This document shows, piece after piece, positions 16,737 through 64,000 of a DNA stretch of 64,000 nucleotides. The DNA is taken from assembly GCA_041675085.1 (NCBI GenBank), contig JBAYUN010000001.1, positions 87,347 through 151,346 of the forward strand, written 5' to 3'. The position numbers and the translations under genes are program-made. The notes beneath the pieces were generated by a model. It worked only from the letters and a program-made list of their open reading frames with translations, had not been told where the DNA came from and made no database searches. The DNA is from Minisyncoccota bacterium. GTDB lineage: Bacteria > Patescibacteriota > Minisyncoccia > Phycocordibacterales > UBA9973. Positions within the stretch are counted from its first letter, which is position 1. Each line of letters begins with the position of its first letter.

Positions 16737-16791
16737 ATTGTTTTATTATATTTAATGTTAAAATTAATGTATATCAACTATATATCATATT

Positions 16792-48510: not shown

Positions 48511-49209
48511 CTAAGAGGTAAATCTACATTTTGGAAAGGCTGAACACCCTAAGAATTTACCAAACTTACCTTCTTTTTCCAAAAGCTCATTGCCACATTT
48601 AGGACAAACTTGTTTAATATTATTTGCTTTAACAGTATCAACCTTTTTAACATTTTGAGCTATCCTGACATATTCAATCAACTTAAAGCTATCAACAAGT
48701 TCTATTGGTTTATCTTCTGCGAATTTTTCTGCTTCAAGAGTAAATTTATTTGTTGTTATAAAATACCCTTTACCATTCGCAACATGATCTGCTAATGCTC
48801 CATAAAAATCTCTCACAGCTCCAACTGGTACTTGGCTAGTGATGAACTTTTTACATTGTATGTAATTTATTATTCCGTTTTTTTCTGCAGTGACATCAAT
48901 TCCCCCATCATGTGACCTACCGACAGCATTTGTCTTATAGCCAAGTTGAAAGAAAAGATCAGCTATATATTTTTCAAATTCATTTGATTTCATTCCTCTA
49001 AGTTGCTGTAAAAGTTCTCTATCAGAACGCCATTCTTGACCATTTTTTATATTTCTTTTTCTTTTCCATTCAGCAATTTTATCTGGAACAATAACTTCAA
49101 GTAATATCTTTAATAACAATAATAATCCTAATCCAACCCAAATAGGCCATAAAGCAAAAAATCCGTGTAAAAAACTTTTATACAAAACAGAATAATCAAT
49201 AATTTGCAT
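48511..49209 (-). CDS. Membrane-anchored Mrr-type restriction-endonuclease catalytic domain protein with C-terminal topoisomerase-type C4 zinc ribbon
   Basis: GRSHDGGIDVTAEKNG..INYIQCKKF..VPVGAVRDFYGAL..KGYFITTNKFT (Mrr_cat pattern); CPKCGNEL..CSAFPKC zinc ribbon. Confidence 0.6.
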   Translation of the reverse strand: MQIIDYSVLYKSFLHGFFALWPIWVGLGLLLLLKILLEVIVPDKIAEWKRKRNIKNGQEWRSDRELLQQLRGMKSNEFEKYIADLFFQLGYKTNAVGRSHDGGIDVTAEKNGIINYIQCKKFITSQVPVGAVRDFYGALADHVANGKGYFITTNKFTLEAEKFAEDKPIELVDSFKLIEYVRIAQNVKKVDTVKANNIKQVCPKCGNELLEKEGKFGKFLGCSAFPKCRFTS

Positions 49210-56127: not shown

Positions 56128-56396
56128 ATATAAATTATATCGCTAAACAATAAAAATTAATAGACTTCAACGCGTCTCGAGCGACGCATGACTTGGCTGA
56201 CTGGCTCAGTCTAGAACCTTAACCTGTGAGACCCCACAAGCATTCTTTGACTACTTTTAGTATACCAAATTGAGGCGTCTCAGTCATGTTTCGTTCAAGC
56301 ACAATACGGCTATATTAGTGTCTTAATTGAACCTATACCAACCTTATTCCACAACAAAATGAGACAAATGAGACAAACTTTCAACCAACCCCATCC

Positions 56397-57110
56397 TTAT
56401 ATTTTAGACAGTCTGGGATCTTTCAACATTTCTGTTTTGAATCTATCATTATCGAGTTCAAGTTTTTTAAAGTTTTCTTTAAAGTCTGGTGCCATGGTAA
56501 GAATTTTATAATCTAAATTAATTCCATAAAAGATATCTATAACTCCTCGGCAAAGATTTGCAACTGCCCAAATATCAGTTTTAATGTGATGATCTTCAAA
56601 ATTATCAAAAAAGTCATGTTTAAACGTTTCTTGATCAAAATTTCTCCAACAATCAACAATATTGGCATGAGTTGATAACGCATTTAGCTGGTCCTTGAAT
56701 CTTTTTAAAGAATCGTTGCCTGGCTTATAATTTTTCTCAATCCATTTATACATCTCACCTTTTAATTTAGGAGTGGGATCAACAAAATTTGCCTTTCCAA
56801 ATTCAGCAAAGCTTTTTTGATCATAATGTGCGATAGCAAAACCTGCCCAACAACCGGCTTCCATGGCAAAACGTAAATCAAGTGTTGCTTGCACGTGATG
56901 CCGACGTAATGCAGACAACAAAGAAAGATTCGTATGTTTTGTTATTTGATTTAAAAACAATGTAAAAATGAAACCCTCTGGAAAATTTACTTTTGCAAAA
57001 GAAGATAATAATCCGATTCCGAATTCTGCATGCTCAACGTATTCAGGAAATTCTTTGCGTGCTTCTTCTAGTGCTTGGTTTTCAATTTGTGCTAAGTCTT
57101 TGATATTCAT
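56397..57110 (-). CDS. Hypothetical protein, 237 aa
   Basis: Clean ORF, no motif. Confidence 0.4.
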   Translation of the reverse strand: MNIKDLAQIENQALEEARKEFPEYVEHAEFGIGLLSSFAKVNFPEGFIFTLFLNQITKHTNLSLLSALRRHHVQATLDLRFAMEAGCWAGFAIAHYDQKSFAEFGKANFVDPTPKLKGEMYKWIEKNYKPGNDSLKRFKDQLNALSTHANIVDCWRNFDQETFKHDFFDNFEDHHIKTDIWAVANLCRGVIDIFYGINLDYKILTMAPDFKENFKKLELDNDRFKTEMLKDPRLSKI

Positions 57111-57127: not shown

Positions 57128-57388
57128 TTAACTTTTGTACTGACTTATTTCCATAGTTCTTTGTAAATCAAACCACTCCGAAGGTGACAACTCTAAAATA
57201 TCTTTACAATTTTTAACTAAGAATTCGGCTATTTCTTCTAATCTTTTAAAATCTTCGAGAGATAAAAGTAATGGATTTAGTTTTTCTTCTCCATATTTAG
57301 AAACATCTCTCATTCTCAACACAGTATTTATTCGTTGCTTCTTTTCTTTATATTCTTCATATAATGCTACACAATTTTGTTTGTCCAT
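57128..57388 (-). CDS. Hypothetical small protein, 86 aa
   Basis: Tight spacing within operon. Confidence 0.35.
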   Translation of the reverse strand: MDKQNCVALYEEYKEKKQRINTVLRMRDVSKYGEEKLNPLLLSLEDFKRLEEIAEFLVKNCKDILELSPSEWFDLQRTMEISQYKS

Positions 57389-57403: not shown

Positions 57404-57808
57404 TTAATTTTTAAAGTTAGCTTTTCTAAGAATAAGCCCTACAATTCGATAACAGACAGGATAAAGTATCACAATACAAGCAGCATTAAATACGTCGTCG
57501 ACAAATACTTCTGGTCCCCAAATTAATCCAATAATTAATAAAACAGTAAAGTAGAGAATGTTATATGCAAAACTACCAAAAGCTCCCCATCTACCCATCA
57601 TTGCATTAAATGTCGTAATAATAAGAACAAAGAAAAGCAGGATAAATAAAGGAAGCCAGTTCTTAACAAGGAAAGCTATGAAGATGTCCCAAGCGAAATT
57701 AACAGCCCATTTGGTTTTTTCCTCAATAGATGTAATTAATATATTTATAAGTTCTTGTGCGAAGTTGTCGCCTAAAGGAGAAGCAGTTGACGGTTCCATA
57801 ATATACAA
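57404..57808 (-). CDS. Hypothetical 3-4 TM membrane protein, 134 aa
   Basis: Hydrophobic helices. Confidence 0.4.
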   Translation of the reverse strand: MYIMEPSTASPLGDNFAQELINILITSIEEKTKWAVNFAWDIFIAFLVKNWLPLFILLFFVLIITTFNAMMGRWGAFGSFAYNILYFTVLLIIGLIWGPEVFVDDVFNAACIVILYPVCYRIVGLILRKANFKN

Positions 57809-57852: not shown

Positions 57853-58542
57853 TTAATTCTCCCAAAAAGTCCTGTTATTTATCTCTTCTTCTTGGTCTAG
57901 ATTAAGGTATTCCAATCTTGTTTTCGATCCATCCAGAATCTTATCATCCACAGAAACCAAAGGTGGTTTACCTCGAGCTGAATATTCTAAAGTTTTGAAT
58001 AAATAGCCGAAAAAAGATCCAGTATATCTATAAAGTCGTATGCAAGTTTTAATCTTGTCTTCCACTTCATCAGCATATCCTTTCCATCGATACATTTGCG
58101 GATAGCGATCAATCCAGTCGTCAGTAATAAAAGTAACCCACTTTATTAATTCCTGTTGAGCACAAACATTTCCTTTCTGGCCTATCCTCACCAGACTAAC
58201 AATCATCTTTTGTTGTATCTTTTTGTCTTGTTCATTCTCTTGAGCAATAAAAGTATACAACTTATCTTTATACTTATTTAAAATAAGATCAACTTCAGAT
58301 TGACGTTCATATAACTTTATATATTTCCGCTTGTATCGAATCCAGCGTTTTTGGAATGTTCTCTTTAATGATTGAGTGACAACATCCCAATCAACATCTC
58401 CATTCTCTGTTCTAAAATTAAGGCGGATATAATGATAGACAGGCTGACAATGCTGAAATATCCAAGAACTACTAAATGTCTTTGGGTCTTTTTCTTTTAA
58501 GGTTTTGTTTAAAACTCTGACGGCCATACTAAAACTTTTCAT
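57853..58542 (-). CDS. Hypothetical basic protein, 229 aa
   Basis: Clean ORF; R/K/Y/W-rich. Confidence 0.4.
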   Translation of the reverse strand: MKSFSMAVRVLNKTLKEKDPKTFSSSWIFQHCQPVYHYIRLNFRTENGDVDWDVVTQSLKRTFQKRWIRYKRKYIKLYERQSEVDLILNKYKDKLYTFIAQENEQDKKIQQKMIVSLVRIGQKGNVCAQQELIKWVTFITDDWIDRYPQMYRWKGYADEVEDKIKTCIRLYRYTGSFFGYLFKTLEYSARGKPPLVSVDDKILDGSKTRLEYLNLDQEEEINNRTFWEN

Positions 58543-58967
58543 AAGTAAATTATAATTTATAAAAGATGATTTTTAACCTGTTGATTGTTTACTCTTGCAA
58601 AAAAGTAATATTGTTCTATAATTAAACCAGTTCTTTGGAATTATTTATACGGTAGCTCAACAATGAATTTGCATCCTATTTTTGGAGCGATTCGTATGTT
58701 GGTACAACGAGGAACTTTTCTATTGTATGGATTAATTGTATCTTATGCTTTGACGGTCGGTTTAAGGAAACACCTTAACTCAGGCAAAAGGATAAAATAA
58801 ATCTAAACAAGAAACTGGTGTGGAGTTGGTAATTTGGTAGCCGCTTTTAGCGTGCTAATAGATTGCCAATTCTACGTCAATAAAAGTTAAAATAATATTG
58901 AAAAAGAAAAAGGCGGCTACCAAGTCGTTTTTTTTGTTTGTCTATTATTAAATTTAACCTAAAAAAT

Positions 58968-60293
58968 ATGTCTGAAAAAATTAAAATCGTGCATGTGCAT
59001 GTGAGCGAGCTTAAAGTTGCTGACTATAATCCCCGTAAGTGGGATAAGGAATCTGAAGCTCAACTAAAAGAAAGTATTAAGAAGTATGGTATTGTCGATC
59101 CTTTATTAGTAAACGGTGCCGAGGAAAGAAAAAATATTGTTATCGGTGGACACTTTAGACTGGCTGTGATTAAAGAGCTTGGAATAGAAGAAGTGCCAGT
59201 CGTCTACATTAATATTCCTGACATTGAAAAAGAAAAAGAACTGAATCTTAGGCTTAATAAAAATACTGGAGAGTTTGACTTTGATCTACTTGCTAAATTC
59301 GATGAAAGTTTTTTAGCCGATGTTGGTTTTAGTTCTGAAGAAATGGATAAGATATTTGAAGAAGAAAAAGAAGAAGAGCAATTTGATTTAAACAAAGAAT
59401 TAGAAAAATTAAATATCGAAAAGATAACTGTCGAAAAGGGTGACGTCTACGATTTAGATGGTTCACGACTTATGTGTGGCGACAGTACTATAGAAGCAGA
59501 TATGTTAAAGCTTTGTGGTGAACATAAAATAGATATGGTTATGACTGATCCGCCATATATACTGGATTACTTACACGGAAAAACAAAACAAGGTAAAGCA
59601 ACTGAAGGGTTTGGTGCAAAGAAGAACCGTAGATATCTTGAGACAGATGTATTGCCTGATAACTTTACTGAATTATGGATGGCAAACGTACACAAAGTTC
59701 AAGCCGACAACTTCTCTATTATTTGCTATGAGAATTGGAAAAACATTAGAATCATTTGGAATGAAATGGATAAGTATTGGAAGGTAAAGAATATGCTCGT
59801 ATGGCACTTAGCTAATAGGAATCAGGGATATGCAGGTAAGCATAAATTCTTTTCTAAATACGATATAGCCATGGTTGCTACTAATACAGAACATAGTGGA
59901 TTACAAACTGAACCAGAAGAAGAATTACTTGAGAATGAATACAATACTGCTTTGTTTGCCATATCAGGTTCTCCTCAGTGGGAAAGCTATGGTAAAGGTA
60001 AAAAATATTGTCCTACTGATCATATAGAACACTTAGCAGCTGACGAGAAATCTTCAGGTCAAGGTATTATCTTTGGTACGAAACCACTAGAGATATTAAT
60101 CCCCTACATCAAAGTATTAACTACTAGAGATCAGCTCGTTCTCGAGCCATTTGGTGGCTCAGGATCCACATTAATTGCGTCTATAAAGATAAAGCGTAGG
60201 TGCTTTCTAATGGAAAAATCACCAGTTTATGCTGAAGTTATTCTTAATCGTTGGGAGAAGTTTACTGGTAAGAAAAGAGTCAAAATATCTTAA
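58968..60293 (+). CDS. ParB-like nuclease domain fused to beta-class DNA methyltransferase (N6A or N4C); ORF track starts at TTG 58938, ATG at 58968 preferred
   Basis: N-terminal ParB/Srx fold (VHVSELKVADYNPRKW..IVIGGHFRLAV); MTDPPY (motif IV) precedes EPFGGSGST (motif I). Confidence 0.75.
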   Translation: MSEKIKIVHVHVSELKVADYNPRKWDKESEAQLKESIKKYGIVDPLLVNGAEERKNIVIGGHFRLAVIKELGIEEVPVVYINIPDIEKEKELNLRLNKNTGEFDFDLLAKFDESFLADVGFSSEEMDKIFEEEKEEEQFDLNKELEKLNIEKITVEKGDVYDLDGSRLMCGDSTIEADMLKLCGEHKIDMVMTDPPYILDYLHGKTKQGKATEGFGAKKNRRYLETDVLPDNFTELWMANVHKVQADNFSIICYENWKNIRIIWNEMDKYWKVKNMLVWHLANRNQGYAGKHKFFSKYDIAMVATNTEHSGLQTEPEEELLENEYNTALFAISGSPQWESYGKGKKYCPTDHIEHLAADEKSSGQGIIFGTKPLEILIPYIKVLTTRDQLVLEPFGGSGSTLIASIKIKRRCFLMEKSPVYAEVILNRWEKFTGKKRVKIS

Positions 60294-60299
60294 CTACTA

Positions 60300-60827
60300 A
60301 TGAAACATAATTATGACAAATCTAAATTTTTGGAGGTTCTTCGTGAATCTCCTTGGATCTCGCTCGCCTCCAAAAAGGCGGGTATTTCCAGAGCGACCAT
60401 CTACAGATGGATGAAAGACAATCCTGAATTCAGACGTGAAGTTGATCGTGCAATGAAAGCTGGAAATTCCCAGCTTGATGATATAGCAGAAATGGGATTA
60501 ATAAAGAAGTTAAAGGAGGGAAACTTTAATGCTATTAAATTTTATCTAATGAACAATAACAGAAAGTATGCTCCTAAGAAAAATATTGATCCGCCTCAAG
60601 TTCTTGTACACCAGCACTCTGATGAATCAGAAATTTGTGAACTATGTATTCGTGTAGCTATTGAAAAAGAGGTTAAAGAAGAAGAAATGAAAAAGAAAAT
60701 ACGTGAAGAGGTTCGCAGGATGCTAAATCCAAAAACAAAGAAGGATAAAGAAGACAGGAAAAAGTTAATGATGAAGACAAAGGATTTTGGTATAGCGAAT
60801 CGTAGAAAGTACAAAGAAAATATGTAG
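60300..60827 (+). CDS. Phage terminase-small-subunit-like HTH DNA-binding protein
   Basis: SKKAGISRATIYRWMKDNPEFRREVDRA...GNFNAIKFYLMNN matches the TerS/HTH pattern; basic C-terminal tail. Confidence 0.45.
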   Translation: MKHNYDKSKFLEVLRESPWISLASKKAGISRATIYRWMKDNPEFRREVDRAMKAGNSQLDDIAEMGLIKKLKEGNFNAIKFYLMNNNRKYAPKKNIDPPQVLVHQHSDESEICELCIRVAIEKEVKEEEMKKKIREEVRRMLNPKTKKDKEDRKKLMMKTKDFGIANRRKYKENM

Positions 60828-60828
60828 A

Positions 60829-61491
60829 CTAATCTCGCAATTGCCAAAGAATCAAATCCAGTATTTTAACTTTAGTGATCTTGCTTGTTTCTGTTATGTT
60901 GGTGTAAGGATATTTTAAGTTAAAGTAATCAAATATATTCTTAGCACCTTCTGTTGGAATAAATTCTTCGAAAATGTCTACTAACTTATTATAAAAATTT
61001 TCTGTTTTTTTAAGTCGATCTGAAATATCTTCTAATGCACTTATTTCTTGGTATTCTTCGTTAATAGAAAGATTTATCCTAATCCATTTATCTATTACTG
61101 GTAAATTAGGATTGATGGTTGCTAAAAGCTTACTAGAAAATGAAGCATCTACAGTGTTTGTTTTTGTATATAGAATTTTGAGTATTTCTCCAAAATCTTT
61201 TTTCTGTTCCTTTGAAATTTCTAATAGAGTAAAATACTCTTTTTTCCAAGAAATATCTTTAAATCGAATTCCATAAAAATTGCTAAACATTTCTTGAAAC
61301 AAAATGTCTTTACTTGGGTTTGTAAGATGTAAGCATCGTTGAATGCTTAGATATTGTTTTAGACCTTTCTTTGCATTTGTTAAAATAGATTCAATTTTTG
61401 ATCCTTTTTTTGATTTGTTGACAGTGAGATCAGAATTCAAAATTCCGTATTCAATAAATAAATCTTGAATGATATTTTGTTTTGTATTCAT
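60829..61491 (-). CDS. Hypothetical protein, 220 aa
   Basis: Clean ORF. Confidence 0.4.
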   Translation of the reverse strand: MNTKQNIIQDLFIEYGILNSDLTVNKSKKGSKIESILTNAKKGLKQYLSIQRCLHLTNPSKDILFQEMFSNFYGIRFKDISWKKEYFTLLEISKEQKKDFGEILKILYTKTNTVDASFSSKLLATINPNLPVIDKWIRINLSINEEYQEISALEDISDRLKKTENFYNKLVDIFEEFIPTEGAKNIFDYFNLKYPYTNITETSKITKVKILDLILWQLRD

Positions 61492-61775
61492 AAACTTTGG
61501 ACGGTTTTATTTAGCCAAGTGGTAGCAAAAAGCTCCTAGCCAGGCCGACTACACCCTTGAGTGTAACCCATACCCCTTTCGAGATATGACCGTCCAAAGT
61601 AGCTCTGACTAAGAGTTCTTTACTTTGGACGGATTTATGACCATATCCTATAAACATTAAGGTTTTTAGGGGTTAGGTCGCTTATTAAGTTATAAAATAA
61701 TTCTAGCACATTTCAAGTGCTTTTGACATCCTAGCTTAGATTAGGAATTAGTGGTAATTAGTTACCAACAGATGA

Positions 61776-63413
61776 TTAAAAACCAAGCTTACGGTTCTTT
61801 AGTCTTCGAGTTACCAACTTAGCGTGAATAGTCTTAAGTTGGGCAATTTCTTCGTTACTCATTTTATAATAATCTTTTAAGATTATTTCGTCGGTGTATC
61901 TAAGTACATCTTTGATGCCAACTTTAGTTCTTAGCATATTGTCTAGTTTTTCTAACTGAGATTGTTTAATTTTTTTACAGTAAGGTATGGAGAGGTTTTT
62001 ATATTCATTAGGAGTTAGCTCAAGAACACCGCCACCATAATAACGACCTTCTAATTCAGCAAATATTAAAGTTAAAGTGTTATAGAAAGAAAATACTAAA
62101 TCGCTAACCTTATTCTCGTCTTTCATTCTAATTCTATAAAAAGCGTCAGTCACATACGACTTCGCTTCGTTCATAGCCATTCTCGGAAAGAGATTAGATC
62201 TCTTTGTGAAAATTCCTTCTGAAACCCAAACTGATGGAACAAAATACCAATTATTACGCAGTTTACATTTGTATCTTTGGTCTATTAATCGATCTTCTCC
62301 AATTTTTAAGTACTCTTTAGCTTCTTTTGAAAAAGATTTTTGATTAACGTCTTCAAATCTTAAAAAGAAAGCGGGTTTACCTCTTTTGGAAATATTTTTT
62401 TGATCAACCTTTGTAAAATTGTTTGTAGATGGCATTAATGAGCCTTTTTGTAGAATTGGTTTTGCTATATTTTGAAGTTTATATTTTTCCACAATTTCTT
62501 TATCTACTATAAAGTAGTCATTCGCCGCAGTAACAATACCTACCTCGGCTCGACAGTAATTCTTGATAGGCAAAAATCGAGTCTTAAGAGTATCTAAAAA
62601 TTTTAGTTCCTTATCCAGCAAAATATAGTTAGTCCATTTATCAAGAGTTTGTCTATGAATATTACTATTCTCTTCTACATAGGTAGGTTCTTTTAAATCT
62701 TCTAGTTTATCTACATGGTAAAAAGAGACACCGGGTGTTTGTTTTTTTGCACAAATCAATATTATTACATCTTGCTCGATGTCAGGAAAAATAAGTTCAT
62801 TAAAAGCAAATATTTCAATCTTCTGAAAGTTGTCTCTTAAGTAACCTCTAAGCTCTTTAGCATATATAACCTGCAACAGCTCAGCTGGTAACACGAAACA
62901 AATAACCCCATTCTCGTTAAGAGACTGAACACCTGAAATAAGAAAACTAGTCCAAATGTTTTTTATACTTTTAGGACTCAAATTTGCTCCCTTATGAATT
63001 GCTTCACAGGATTCAATTTGTTTCTTTGTTAGGTAGTTACTTTTTATATATGGAGGATTACCTATAACTAAGTCAAACTTCTTTTTGTTCTTCTTATTAA
63101 ACTCTAAATAATCTTCATTAAAATAGTTAATTTTCTGTGAAGCAAGGAGACGCTTCTTGTTTTTCTTTTTTGAAATTTCTATTTCCTCCTTATCTTTTTC
63201 AATAGCATCTATAGTTATATTTTTAGGAAGCTTGAATCTTCCCTTAAACGTAGTATTGGAAAACATGGAATCAAAAAAGTTTCCATCACCAGAGCTTGGC
63301 TCTAGAACGTTTATACTGTTACTGAAATCATATTTATCAAACAAATGAAAAACTATGAAATCTGCTAGTAACGAGGGCGTATAATATGCACCATTTTCCT
63401 TGTTTGATATCAT
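61776..63413 (-). CDS. Gamma-class N6-adenine DNA methyltransferase (Eco57I/TaqI-like) with C-terminal target-recognition region
   Basis: GAYYTP (motif X), LEPSSGDGNFF (motif I), VIGNPPYIKS (motif IV) in X-I-IV order. Confidence 0.8.
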   Translation of the reverse strand: MISNKENGAYYTPSLLADFIVFHLFDKYDFSNSINVLEPSSGDGNFFDSMFSNTTFKGRFKLPKNITIDAIEKDKEEIEISKKKNKKRLLASQKINYFNEDYLEFNKKNKKKFDLVIGNPPYIKSNYLTKKQIESCEAIHKGANLSPKSIKNIWTSFLISGVQSLNENGVICFVLPAELLQVIYAKELRGYLRDNFQKIEIFAFNELIFPDIEQDVIILICAKKQTPGVSFYHVDKLEDLKEPTYVEENSNIHRQTLDKWTNYILLDKELKFLDTLKTRFLPIKNYCRAEVGIVTAANDYFIVDKEIVEKYKLQNIAKPILQKGSLMPSTNNFTKVDQKNISKRGKPAFFLRFEDVNQKSFSKEAKEYLKIGEDRLIDQRYKCKLRNNWYFVPSVWVSEGIFTKRSNLFPRMAMNEAKSYVTDAFYRIRMKDENKVSDLVFSFYNTLTLIFAELEGRYYGGGVLELTPNEYKNLSIPYCKKIKQSQLEKLDNMLRTKVGIKDVLRYTDEIILKDYYKMSNEEIAQLKTIHAKLVTRRLKNRKLGF

Positions 63414-64000
63414 CTAAACTATTTCTAAATAATTTACTTCTAAGTAAGAAAAATACTTCTGGTATTCTTCAGCTAATTCTGCAATCCCCTCATTTACTTC
63501 TGCCTTAATCGTCTCTGGCAAATTCAAAGTATTTTTTAGTGTAATCAACTTTTTTTGCTGCTCAGCAATCTTTTCTATACGCCAATACAATTCATACCGT
63601 TTTAGATATAATTTAAGTTTTTTCCACATATATCTAGCGATGGGATGATCTTTGGGTACTATTCCACCACAATCAGTTCTTTCAAAATAATCGTTGAAAT
63701 CGACATCGCATGGATGGAAATAACCTTCCTTGCCTACAATTGATACATCTGGATCATCTGAAGGCCAGTCATTACTTTTAATTCGATTTACTTGAGGAGA
63801 TGCGTAAATAAGGTTTTCGTATACATGCTCTTTTGCCGAAAACTTACTAAGTTTAATTGCATCTAAAATCTTTGGGTTTTGAGGAGCGAAATGATCAATT
63901 TGAAATCCTCCTGCCCACCACACATCTTTGCAGTCAGTAAATCCACATCTTCCATCGTAGTCTTGTCGCAAAATCTCCCTATAATCTTTATAGTTATTTT
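63414..64000 (-). CDS. HNH-family endonuclease, 5'-truncated by window end; putative restriction partner of the adjacent methyltransferase (its TAG abuts the methyltransferase ATG)
   Basis: RCGFTDCKDVWWAGGFQIDHFAP...NLIYASPQVNRIK HNH core; frame stays open to position 64000. Confidence 0.55.
   Translation of the reverse strand, partial: NNYKDYREILRQDYDGRCGFTDCKDVWWAGGFQIDHFAPQNPKILDAIKLSKFSAKEHVYENLIYASPQVNRIKSNDWPSDDPDVSIVGKEGYFHPCDVDFNDYFERTDCGGIVPKDHPIARYMWKKLKLYLKRYELYWRIEKIAEQQKKLITLKNTLNLPETIKAEVNEGIAELAEEYQKYFSYLEVNYLEIV

Follow-up and report, generated by a model that had tools for sequence, protein, structure and literature searches.

A ParB-methyltransferase and small-terminase-like gene pair as the probable packaging-side module of a satellite-like integrative element in Patescibacteria

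The 64,000-nucleotide stretch analyzed here (hereafter the window) carries, at 58968 to 60827, a gene for a ParB_N domain fused to a DNA methyltransferase (ParB-MTase), followed by a gene for a 175-residue helix-turn-helix (HTH) protein that resembles small terminase subunits (TerS). Our preferred explanation, held as a whole with moderate confidence, is that this pair forms the module on the packaging side of a phage-derived, satellite-like integrative element mobilized by a large serine recombinase (LSR), and the evidence for it lies in homology, synteny, distribution among genomes, selection, the nature of the cargo genes and adjacency to tRNA genes. A preliminary description had left the pair as either a decayed prophage remnant or a repurposed unit beside a host restriction-modification (RM) pair, and neither alternative fared well. 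The pair is not a decaying remnant, because the same small set of genes is met again in about 80 species under purifying selection (ratio of nonsynonymous to synonymous substitution rates, dN/dS, of 0.03 to 0.3). Nor is the RM pair the host's, because other RM and defense systems take exactly the same position in relatives; the Eco57I-type MTase, HNH protein and ATPase found there are the element's variable cargo. All coordinates are window positions, and those called window-equivalent are extrapolated past the window end onto the same source contig (529 kb, from a Candidatus Paceibacterota metagenome-assembled genome, or MAG), which runs on beyond the window. Individual loci carry our own handles, L003 being that of the window.

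A methyltransferase and small-terminase-like gene pair of phage type

The ParB-MTase gene (58968 to 60293, plus strand) encodes an orphan MTase of 441 residues, of the N6/N4, beta-class (DPPY) kind; a TTG at 58938 is an alternative start, less likely than the ATG, which is where the publicly available gene call and the alignments of homologues both begin. Pfam places ParB_N (PF02195) at residues 7 to 87 (E = 6.8e-10) and N6_N4_Mtase (PF01555) at residues 188 to 425 (E = 2.3e-17), phrog_498, annotated "DNA methyltransferase," covers the protein from end to end (E = 2.4e-74), and the closest solved structures are the N-domains of ParB, Spo0J and Noc and, for the MTase part, CcrM. Since the DPPY of motif IV stands upstream of FxGxG (FGGSGS, motif I), the order is that of the beta class, and the fusion named in the preliminary description is borne out in both its halves. 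Among 78 homologues the ParB GGxxR box, with its phosphate-binding GxxR, is kept in 75 to 78, DPPY in 77 to 78 and FGGSGS in 72 to 78. Database homologues number 6494 at E ≤ 1e-10, and the best 120 of these 6494 are all at least 73% identical. ParB-MTase is the most conserved gene of the element, with a dN/dS of about 0.03 (this and the other ratios were computed among the four closest elements, with dS saturated at values of at least 1 to 2) and 65 to 91% identity across Patescibacteria classes. Fusions of a ParB-CTPase fold to an N6/N4 MTase are reported to be enriched in phages and prophage regions and are suspected of an antidefense role (PMC12704722); the domain fusion surveyed there is identical to that of the window, whereas the Patescibacteria element, its TerS partner and the context of LSR and LOOT RNA taken up below are not described in that survey.

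Upstream of the gene, a consensus scan finds a promoter-like site (58595 to 58622, plus strand). A conserved leader of about 310 nt follows (within 58595 to 58935, plus strand), together with a small terminator-like hairpin, CGGCT-ACCA-AGTCG with a 5-bp stem (58914 to 58927, plus strand), and a T8 run (58928 to 58935), 33 nt before the ATG. L005 and L007 keep the -10 of the promoter, the blocks of the leader and the hairpin, and a compensatory change is seen at one pair of the stem, which is G-C in L007, A-T in L005 and G.T in L003. The layout recalls phage late operons that need read-through, and the leader may be either a late-type leader under read-through control or a separate small RNA (sRNA).

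Six nucleotides downstream, in the same direction, lies the gene for the 175-residue protein (60300 to 60827, plus strand), whose N-terminal domain is of the PF13022/Sf6 small-terminase type. It scores 30.2 bits against PF13022 (HTH_Tnp_1_2; gathering score 27.9) over 73 residues, well past the HTH, and among the PHROG families it has six "terminase small subunit" matches (best E = 2.2e-8), which upholds the TerS-like HTH pattern pointed out in the preliminary description; Sf6_terminase is matched below threshold. Across 72 homologues, PF13022 is found in 70 and Sf6_terminase in 21. When an AlpA/Xis identity was tested, PF05930 reached 19.0 bits against a cutoff of 21, over 17 residues only, and matched 5 of the 72 homologues. 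Database relatives number only 16, a count that reflects the sensitivity of a word-based search, and one of them is named "AlpA family" by NCBI. The AlphaFold 2 model, of a monomer, has an HTH and a helical core (mean predicted local confidence, pLDDT, 86), and its top Foldseek matches are the phBC6A51 protein 2ao9, Sf6 gp1 and NV1 small terminases, at E = 0.3 to 4 and template-modeling (TM) scores of 0.25 to 0.4. When the TerS profile was run against the Protein Data Bank (PDB), RecA fusion constructs came first, an artifact of six weak repeats in one chain that we ignored. We take the 175-residue protein to be truly homologous to small terminases. We call it TerS-like and do not claim it as a working TerS, because the window contains no gene for a large terminase subunit (TerL), nor do the 10 kb to each side; a tblastn search with 12 TerL queries returned zero matches in the window.

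The TerS-like gene has a dN/dS of 0.2 to 0.3. Its product bears a C-terminal extension that is specific to the TerL-less clade described below and includes an HxH-x6-CxxC motif (60600 to 60660, residues 102 to 120), kept only in the nine closest homologues and placed in a low-confidence linker ahead of a long Lys/Glu-rich helix. This motif may be a zinc knuckle specific to that clade.

The pair is also of phage type, as the preliminary description held. In isolated phages, ParB-MTase homologues 27 to 31% identical stand just before the gene in the TerS position, TerL and the head genes. The sole INPHARED homologue of the 175-residue protein, in phage vB_RanS_PJN03, lies between ParB-domain genes and the TerL and portal genes, and the IMG/VR contigs L108 and L111 carry ParB-MTase, an HTH homologue matching TerS PHROGs, TerL, portal and head morphogenesis genes. 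Phages and IMG/VR contigs alike thus show the order ParB-(MTase), TerS, TerL, portal, and TerL itself is found in 31 relatives of the element in the window.

An element family with a serine recombinase, LOOT RNA and variable cargo

A scan of one genome per species gave 80 loci, mapped by tblastn, ARAGORN and a LOOT covariance model; by their record titles they come mostly from Patescibacteria of many classes. The common order is ParB-MTase, the TerS-like gene, sometimes TerL, a LOOT RNA, variable RM and defense cargo, an LSR and a minus-strand tRNA gene. In 69 nonredundant loci the TerS-like gene directly follows ParB-MTase (median gap, 20 nt), and most of the others are cut off by the edge of a contig. 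In 45 loci a homologous LSR is encoded 0.5 to 9.2 kb downstream on the same strand, and 100 to 2100 bp past the LSR there is a minus-strand tRNA gene in about 22 (Gln commonest, also Ser, Asn, Asp, Arg, Pro and Trp). Element size ranges from 3.3 to 15 kb; minimal members (L054, L061, L073, L028, L030 and L033) measure 3.3 to 4.5 kb, and the last three of these carry just ParB-MTase, TerS, TerL and LSR. Two IMG/VR "viral" contigs, L093 and L094, are elements of the same kind. Neither in the window and its flanks nor in the approximately 80 related loci did we find head, tail or lysis genes or pseudogenes. Many element contigs are titled "uncultured Gammaproteobacteria" or "Saccharibacteria" (third-party annotation, TPA, "binchicken" assemblies), and one is titled Methanoregula; these are probably taxonomic mislabels or misbinned contigs and not a real host range.

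TerL directly follows the TerS-like gene in 31 loci (Terminase_6C and TIGR01630 above cutoff) and is visibly truncated in about 6. In the ParB-MTase tree, the element of the window falls in a 22-locus clade whose members are all without TerL and all keep TerS, at 121 to 224 residues and often with a C-terminal extension; the TerL-bearing members, with a TerS of 127 to 156 residues and one outlier of 184, are spread over several other clades, and the truncated TerL genes are scattered among them. Read from this tree, TerL has been lost repeatedly and TerS retained afterwards. SaPIs (Staphylococcus aureus pathogenicity islands) rely on the TerL of their helper phage, and retention of TerS without TerL is what would be expected of a satellite dependent on a helper's TerL; it would also be expected of a protein with a new DNA-binding role.

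The LSR gene of the window's element (window-equivalent 67159 to 68436, plus strand) encodes 425 residues with Resolvase, Recombinase and Zn_ribbon domains and lies 6.3 kb downstream of the pair, 3.2 kb past the window end. Hence the earlier remark that no TerL, portal or integrase follows the pair stands inside the window and fails, for the integrase, just outside it. The best NCBIfam match of the LSR is the SCCmec recombinase CcrB, far below the equivalog cutoff, and its dN/dS is 0.03. Where the preliminary description had allowed for a complete prophage, the DNA just outside the window holds none; in its place lie the LSR, a two-gene CBASS (cyclic-oligonucleotide-based antiphage signaling system), a tRNA-Gln(UUG) gene on the minus strand and then the host genes holB and dus.

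A LOOT RNA (Rfam RF03000) lies between the pair and the cargo, at 61547 to 61679 on the minus strand, full length and at 79.3 bits against a gathering score of 46.4; a promoter-like site from the consensus scan is just upstream of it (61729 to 61700, minus strand). It takes the equivalent place in L005 (11239 to 11363), L007 (11131 to 11255) and L009 (11058 to 11183), and the covariance model built in this analysis finds it in 46 of 83 loci; LOOT is a fixed component of the Patescibacteria element family. As to its structure, 94% of cells are paired against 33 to 43% in slid controls, and compensatory changes occur at 36 of 39 pairs in an alignment that was fitted to the model. Because LOOT is placed about 50 to 90 nt upstream of a same-strand open reading frame (ORF) in most loci, and this ORF is hypervariable (mostly BLAST singletons), it looks like a conserved 5′ leader. 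Rfam lists it as an sRNA, and the main text of the paper describing it does not contain LOOT. The ORF that the LOOT leader heads in the window (60829 to 61491, minus strand; dN/dS, 0.22) encodes 220 residues with a predicted all-alpha fold like that of HhH-GPD DNA glycosylases.

On the far side of LOOT, the cargo of the window begins with an Eco57I-type N6 MTase (61776 to 63413) and an HNH/PtuB-like protein (63414 to 64052, cut by the window end) and continues beyond the window with a 219-residue protein and a 772-residue HATPase_c_3 (GHKL) protein, all on the minus strand. In three contigs reached through homologues of the TerS-like protein, which share the gene order, the same slot holds an AlwI restriction endonuclease (REase) and two MTases in L005 and a type I RM system with SduA/Shedu in L007, and it is empty in L009. 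A census of the ORFs between TerS and LSR (117 at 45 loci) is dominated by type I, II, IIG, III and ISP RM, with OLD/AAA_15, AbiEii-type and phospholipase D (PLD) proteins as other cargo; capsid, portal and tail families are absent from these 117. The cargo block of the window's own locus (63414 to 64000, and L003 13115 to 16715) is unusual for RM in its make-up of Eco57I-type MTase, HNH/PtuB-like protein, 219-residue protein and 772-residue GHKL ATPase with only faint REase matches, and it may be an uncharacterized modification-linked defense system.

An 11-bp motif, AGTTACCAACA, marks the LOOT-side border of the cargo (61760 to 61770, plus strand; L003 11461) and recurs at window-equivalent 67094 to 67104 (L003 16795), 65 nt before the LSR start. 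DNA similarity between L003 and L005 ends at L003 11476 and restarts at 16791, with AGTTACCAACA at both points, and in an alignment of more than 20 loci the sequence is conserved to the left of the LOOT-side copy and varies to its right, with the reverse for the LSR-side copy. One copy with both conserved flanks joined is found in the cargo-free loci L013, L040, L077 and L086, two copies surround one cargo block in L003, L005, L007, L014 and L024, and three copies surround two blocks in L018, L021, L035 and L043. The arrangement is thus the one looked for in an element like the staphylococcal cassette chromosome (SCC) or an integron, with 1, 2 and 3 copies for 0, 1 and 2 cargo blocks next to the LSR. 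Of 45 testable LOOT copies, 27 have the motif 51 to 110 nt to their 5′ side, and in 16 of 45 loci it stands 55 to 141 nt upstream of the LSR start; all loci together, 1.36 Mb, hold 75 matches against roughly 22 expected (our own estimate, one mismatch allowed). As a sequence pattern, this is the signature of site-specific cassette insertion, and AGTTACCAACA may be a site at which a serine recombinase captures cassettes; it could alternatively be a duplicated operator or pac site. Breaks in Logan contigs (L002 and L004) were considered as evidence of cargo swapping and rejected, as they fall inside LOOT and the LSR 5′ end and not at the 11-mers.

The ends of the element were sought by a targeted comparison of tRNA flanks, which yielded the attachment-site (att)-like repeats; a generic direct-repeat search of the locus gave AT-rich chance matches only. 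A 94-bp conserved sequence (56194 to 56288) ends in the att-like core TCTCAGTCA (56277 to 56288), a 9-mer that recurs only there and 16 nt from the 3′ end of tRNA-Gln, and we infer that it is the left boundary; the element would then measure about 13.9 kb, from 56.29 kb in the window to window-equivalent 70.19 kb, about 6.2 kb past the window end. Exact 9-mer att-like repeats are also present in L014 and L045, L007 has a direct repeat of 23 bp, one copy right at the 3′ end of tRNA-Gln and the other 2.5 kb upstream of ParB-MTase, and a CTC(G/A)GTC(A/T) motif stands 12 to 22 nt from the tRNA in many loci. The 94-bp sequence itself is 93 to 95% identical to two copies in L007 (4663 to 4757 and 6783 to 6876) with different flanking genes, every copy diverging in the alignment right after TCAGTCA, like the tRNA-proximal junction. 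It is probably the right end of a neighboring element remnant; a sensitive Rfam scan of it gave no match. The predicted attP junction reads ...TATGACGCATCTCAGTCA|TGTTTCGTTCAAGC..., and the predicted empty attB ...GAGGCGTCTCAGTCA|GTTGACTTAGCATATG-tRNA-Gln. The 94-bp sequence ends in GAGGCGTCTCAGTCA, and related GAGGCGTCTCGGTC copies are arrayed in the unrelated metagenome contig L175 (at 460 to 490, 560 and 1325); these copies and the 94-bp sequence have the look of remnants of element ends (att arms) at hotspots of integration by tRNAs. As a candidate empty attB, L175 was rejected, since its att-like remnants form an array and its tRNA end is truncated.

As for the remaining features, four accessory ORFs precede the pair on the minus strand, of 237 (56397 to 57110), 86 (57128 to 57388), 131 (57404 to 57799) and 229 residues (57853 to 58542), all without Pfam, PHROG or PADLOC matches. 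Homologues of the 229-residue protein stand directly upstream of ParB-MTase in L011, L015, L053 and L081, and homologues of the 131- and 237-residue proteins are present in L014 and L042. At the other end, the CBASS (L003 18169 to 19619, window-equivalent 68468 to 69918) consists of an oligonucleotide cyclase and a NucC-like/DUF6602 endonuclease (PADLOC E of about 1e-76 each) and, lying between the LSR and tRNA-Gln, makes a second site for cargo, beyond the LSR. Host genes flank the element on both sides, and the window is cellular DNA (gltX, murG, ftsW, mraY and lexA at 20 to 25 kb; GC content, 32%). PHROG and Pfam scans of the neighbors and of the 38- to 53-kb region found no structural phage genes (capsid, portal or tail) in the window; a run of small minus-strand ORFs in that region, considered as a hidden phage structural module, gave Mrr nuclease, DUF4268, DUF817 and DsbD instead. 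At 48511 to 49209 (minus strand), a gene joins an Mrr-type restriction endonuclease domain to a topoisomerase-type C4 zinc ribbon, and its place beside DUF4268 and ASCH-like genes suggests another small defense cluster upstream of the element.

Weighing a satellite-like element against other readings

Looked at as a satellite, the element has an integrase with att-like repeats, a compact size and no capsid or tail genes. In the life cycle that we propose, the LSR would integrate and excise the element about 12 to 22 nt from the tRNA 3′ end, perhaps with a helper-supplied recombination directionality factor (RDF) as in PLE, the elements that resemble phage-inducible chromosomal islands. The TerS-like protein would recognize the element's DNA and recruit TerL, and the element would be packaged in the capsids of a helper phage, on the analogy of SaPIs and other phage-inducible chromosomal islands (PICIs) and of PLE. 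Relatives with a TerL would use their own, and the member in the window would hijack that of the helper. ParB-MTase, made from the same late-type operon, would methylate the element's DNA and so let it survive restriction in the next host.

Several points weigh against this proposal. ParB-MTase is a methylase by prediction. The HTH of its partner also gives below-threshold Phage_AlpA matches, and the partner's structural matches are weak (Foldseek E of 0.3 to 4; PDB sequence search E of about 0.5). Nearly all family loci come from MAGs, and the element ends are set by short repeats of 9 to 23 bp. No clean empty site was found, either by exact-protein lookup of the flanking AlaX, which returned only the same strain with the island present, or by a metagenome scan for the predicted junction. 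Among the element's ORFs, several of which have no domain matches, we found no primase, helicase, Rep, repressor or capsid-remodeling gene, although most known satellites have a replication module, a repressor and capsid remodeling. Neither a helper phage nor an excised circle or packaged form has been seen.

The rival explanations differ in which of the element's parts they take as central. The 175-residue protein could by now be an RDF/excisionase or a transcriptional regulator (AlpA/Xis-like) acting on the att sites, on AGTTACCAACA or on the LOOT and LSR promoters, with ParB-MTase still serving against restriction. We think this unlikely and keep it as a rival without adopting it. The below-threshold Phage_AlpA matches (5 of 72 homologues) and the one "AlpA family" name point that way, as do a TerS-like gene still under selection in a clade from which TerL has gone entirely, the greater length of the TerL-less proteins (about 170 against about 135 residues) with their new C-terminal HxH..CxxC region, the lack of another RDF candidate among the three core genes, and the repeated 11-bp sites between two promoters. 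The domain evidence runs the other way, with PF13022 above threshold over 73 residues and AlpA below it, as does orthology to genes that stand before TerL; moreover, the known RDFs of LSRs are, to our knowledge, mostly not HTH proteins. In PLE, the RDF is provided by the helper phage (PMC6002521). A second possibility, compatible with the satellite-like element that we prefer and doubtful as the main account, gives the lead to the LSR: the element would mainly be an integron- or SCC-like cassette platform capturing DNA at AGTTACCAACA, with ParB-MTase and TerS as phage baggage or an aid to spread. Copy number of the motif tracks the cargo blocks, the conserved flanks meet exactly at it, RM and other defense genes dominate the cargo and the best NCBIfam match of the LSR is CcrB. 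However, the cassette-proximal arms are unconserved where LSR att sites normally need about 40 to 50 bp, the tRNA junction has a different att-like core (of the CTCGGTC type), no free cassette circles were seen, the 11-mer is absent from the TerL-bearing minimal members, and the operator or pac-site alternative applies here too.

The two remaining rivals are much less probable, and they are the ones closest to the preliminary description. A domesticated, nonmobile chromosomal unit, that is, a host epigenetic or recognition pair working with the adjacent RM genes, would fit the extraordinary conservation of ParB-MTase and the constant presence of RM-type genes beside the pair; we consider it improbable, since the RM content differs at every locus while the pair is constant, the flanking host genes and tRNA species vary between genomes, and 65 to 91% ParB-MTase identity across classes goes together with an LSR and att-like repeats. 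Least probable of all, and already largely refuted, is a prophage whose structural genes were deleted and whose other genes are drifting. The module is of phage origin, and gene loss does occur in the family (TerL is truncated in about 6 loci and missing in many), but a core of 3 to 4 genes recurs in about 80 species and structural genes in none, dN/dS is 0.03 to 0.3 at saturated dS with invariant catalytic motifs, and host genes lie on either side of the element. In any case, returning to the satellite-like element, a fuller and more tentative claim, which we put forward as possible and no stronger, is that Patescibacteria (the candidate phyla radiation, CPR) have a family of minimal phage satellites not described before, built of ParB-MTase, TerS with or without TerL, a Ccr-like LSR and LOOT and sitting beside tRNA genes, in which the LSR may also run an integron/SCC-like AGTTACCAACA capture site that shuffles RM and defense cassettes and LOOT would be the regulatory leader of a hypervariable gene.

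Novelty and comparison with known systems

Literature searches found no prior description of this Patescibacteria element family; the nearest reports are a survey of genomic islands in which an RM island of a Paceibacteria MAG is mentioned (PMC12455944) and the survey of ParB folds cited above (PMC12704722). The ParB-N6N4 MTase fusion, TerS-bearing islands and LSR-bearing satellites are already known. What appears to be new is their combination as a widespread Patescibacteria family, the placing of LOOT in it, and an 11-bp-bounded defense slot beside the LSR. Patescibacteria make up a large part of bacterial diversity and are mostly without CRISPR, and little is known of their gene exchange. 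If a widespread 3- to 15-kb element carries RM, CBASS, Shedu and OLD-type systems from class to class, it would be one of the main routes by which defense genes move in the phylum. For the orphan LOOT RNA it supplies a host, a place in the genome and a role that can be tested; compact LSRs with predictable att sites are of interest as genome-engineering tools; and the natural series from TerS with TerL, through truncated TerL, to TerS only lends itself to studying how satellites come to need the terminase of a helper. Should the 11-bp site truly serve for capture, it would make a serine-recombinase analogue of the integron.

The phage late-operon module, as found in Verrucomicrobia phage P8625, Streptococcus Javan phages, vB_RanS_PJN03 and the contigs L108 and L111, is among the closest known systems, with the same gene order and orientation and with a homologous ParB_N-N6_N4 MTase (27 to 43% identical) and, after it, a homologue of the PF13022/TerS-PHROG protein. 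The phages continue with TerL, portal and head genes, whereas the element of the window has an LSR, a LOOT RNA and defense cargo instead. Among satellites, SaPIs and PICIs combine an integrase with a TerS of their own that redirects the helper's TerL, and carry accessory and defense cargo in hotspots. The window's element resembles them in having an integrase and its own TerS without TerL or capsid genes; PICIs, unlike it, have tyrosine integrases together with repressor and primase/replicase genes, modules not found in the window's element, and belong to Bacillota and Proteobacteria. PLE is a satellite with an LSR and an excision factor from its helper phage (PMC6002521), and such a helper-supplied factor would explain the lack of an evident RDF in the window's element. 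The two are alike in LSR integration and in having no capsid genes; PLE has in addition its own replication module, antiphage effectors and integration into superintegron repeats, whereas ParB-MTase and LOOT RNA are found only in the window's element, whose dependence on a helper is putative. The likeness to SCC and SCCmec elements lies in an LSR that best matches CcrB and in cargo blocks arrayed between short direct-repeat copies, but SCC elements insert in rlmH, carry their Ccr genes inside the cassette and have no terminase, ParB-MTase or structured RNA. With integrons, finally, the element shares a recombinase beside the insertion site, a divergently transcribed array and a single site when the array is empty, the difference being that integrons use a tyrosine recombinase and a folded attC, and the element an 11-bp linear motif and a serine enzyme whose action on that motif is putative.

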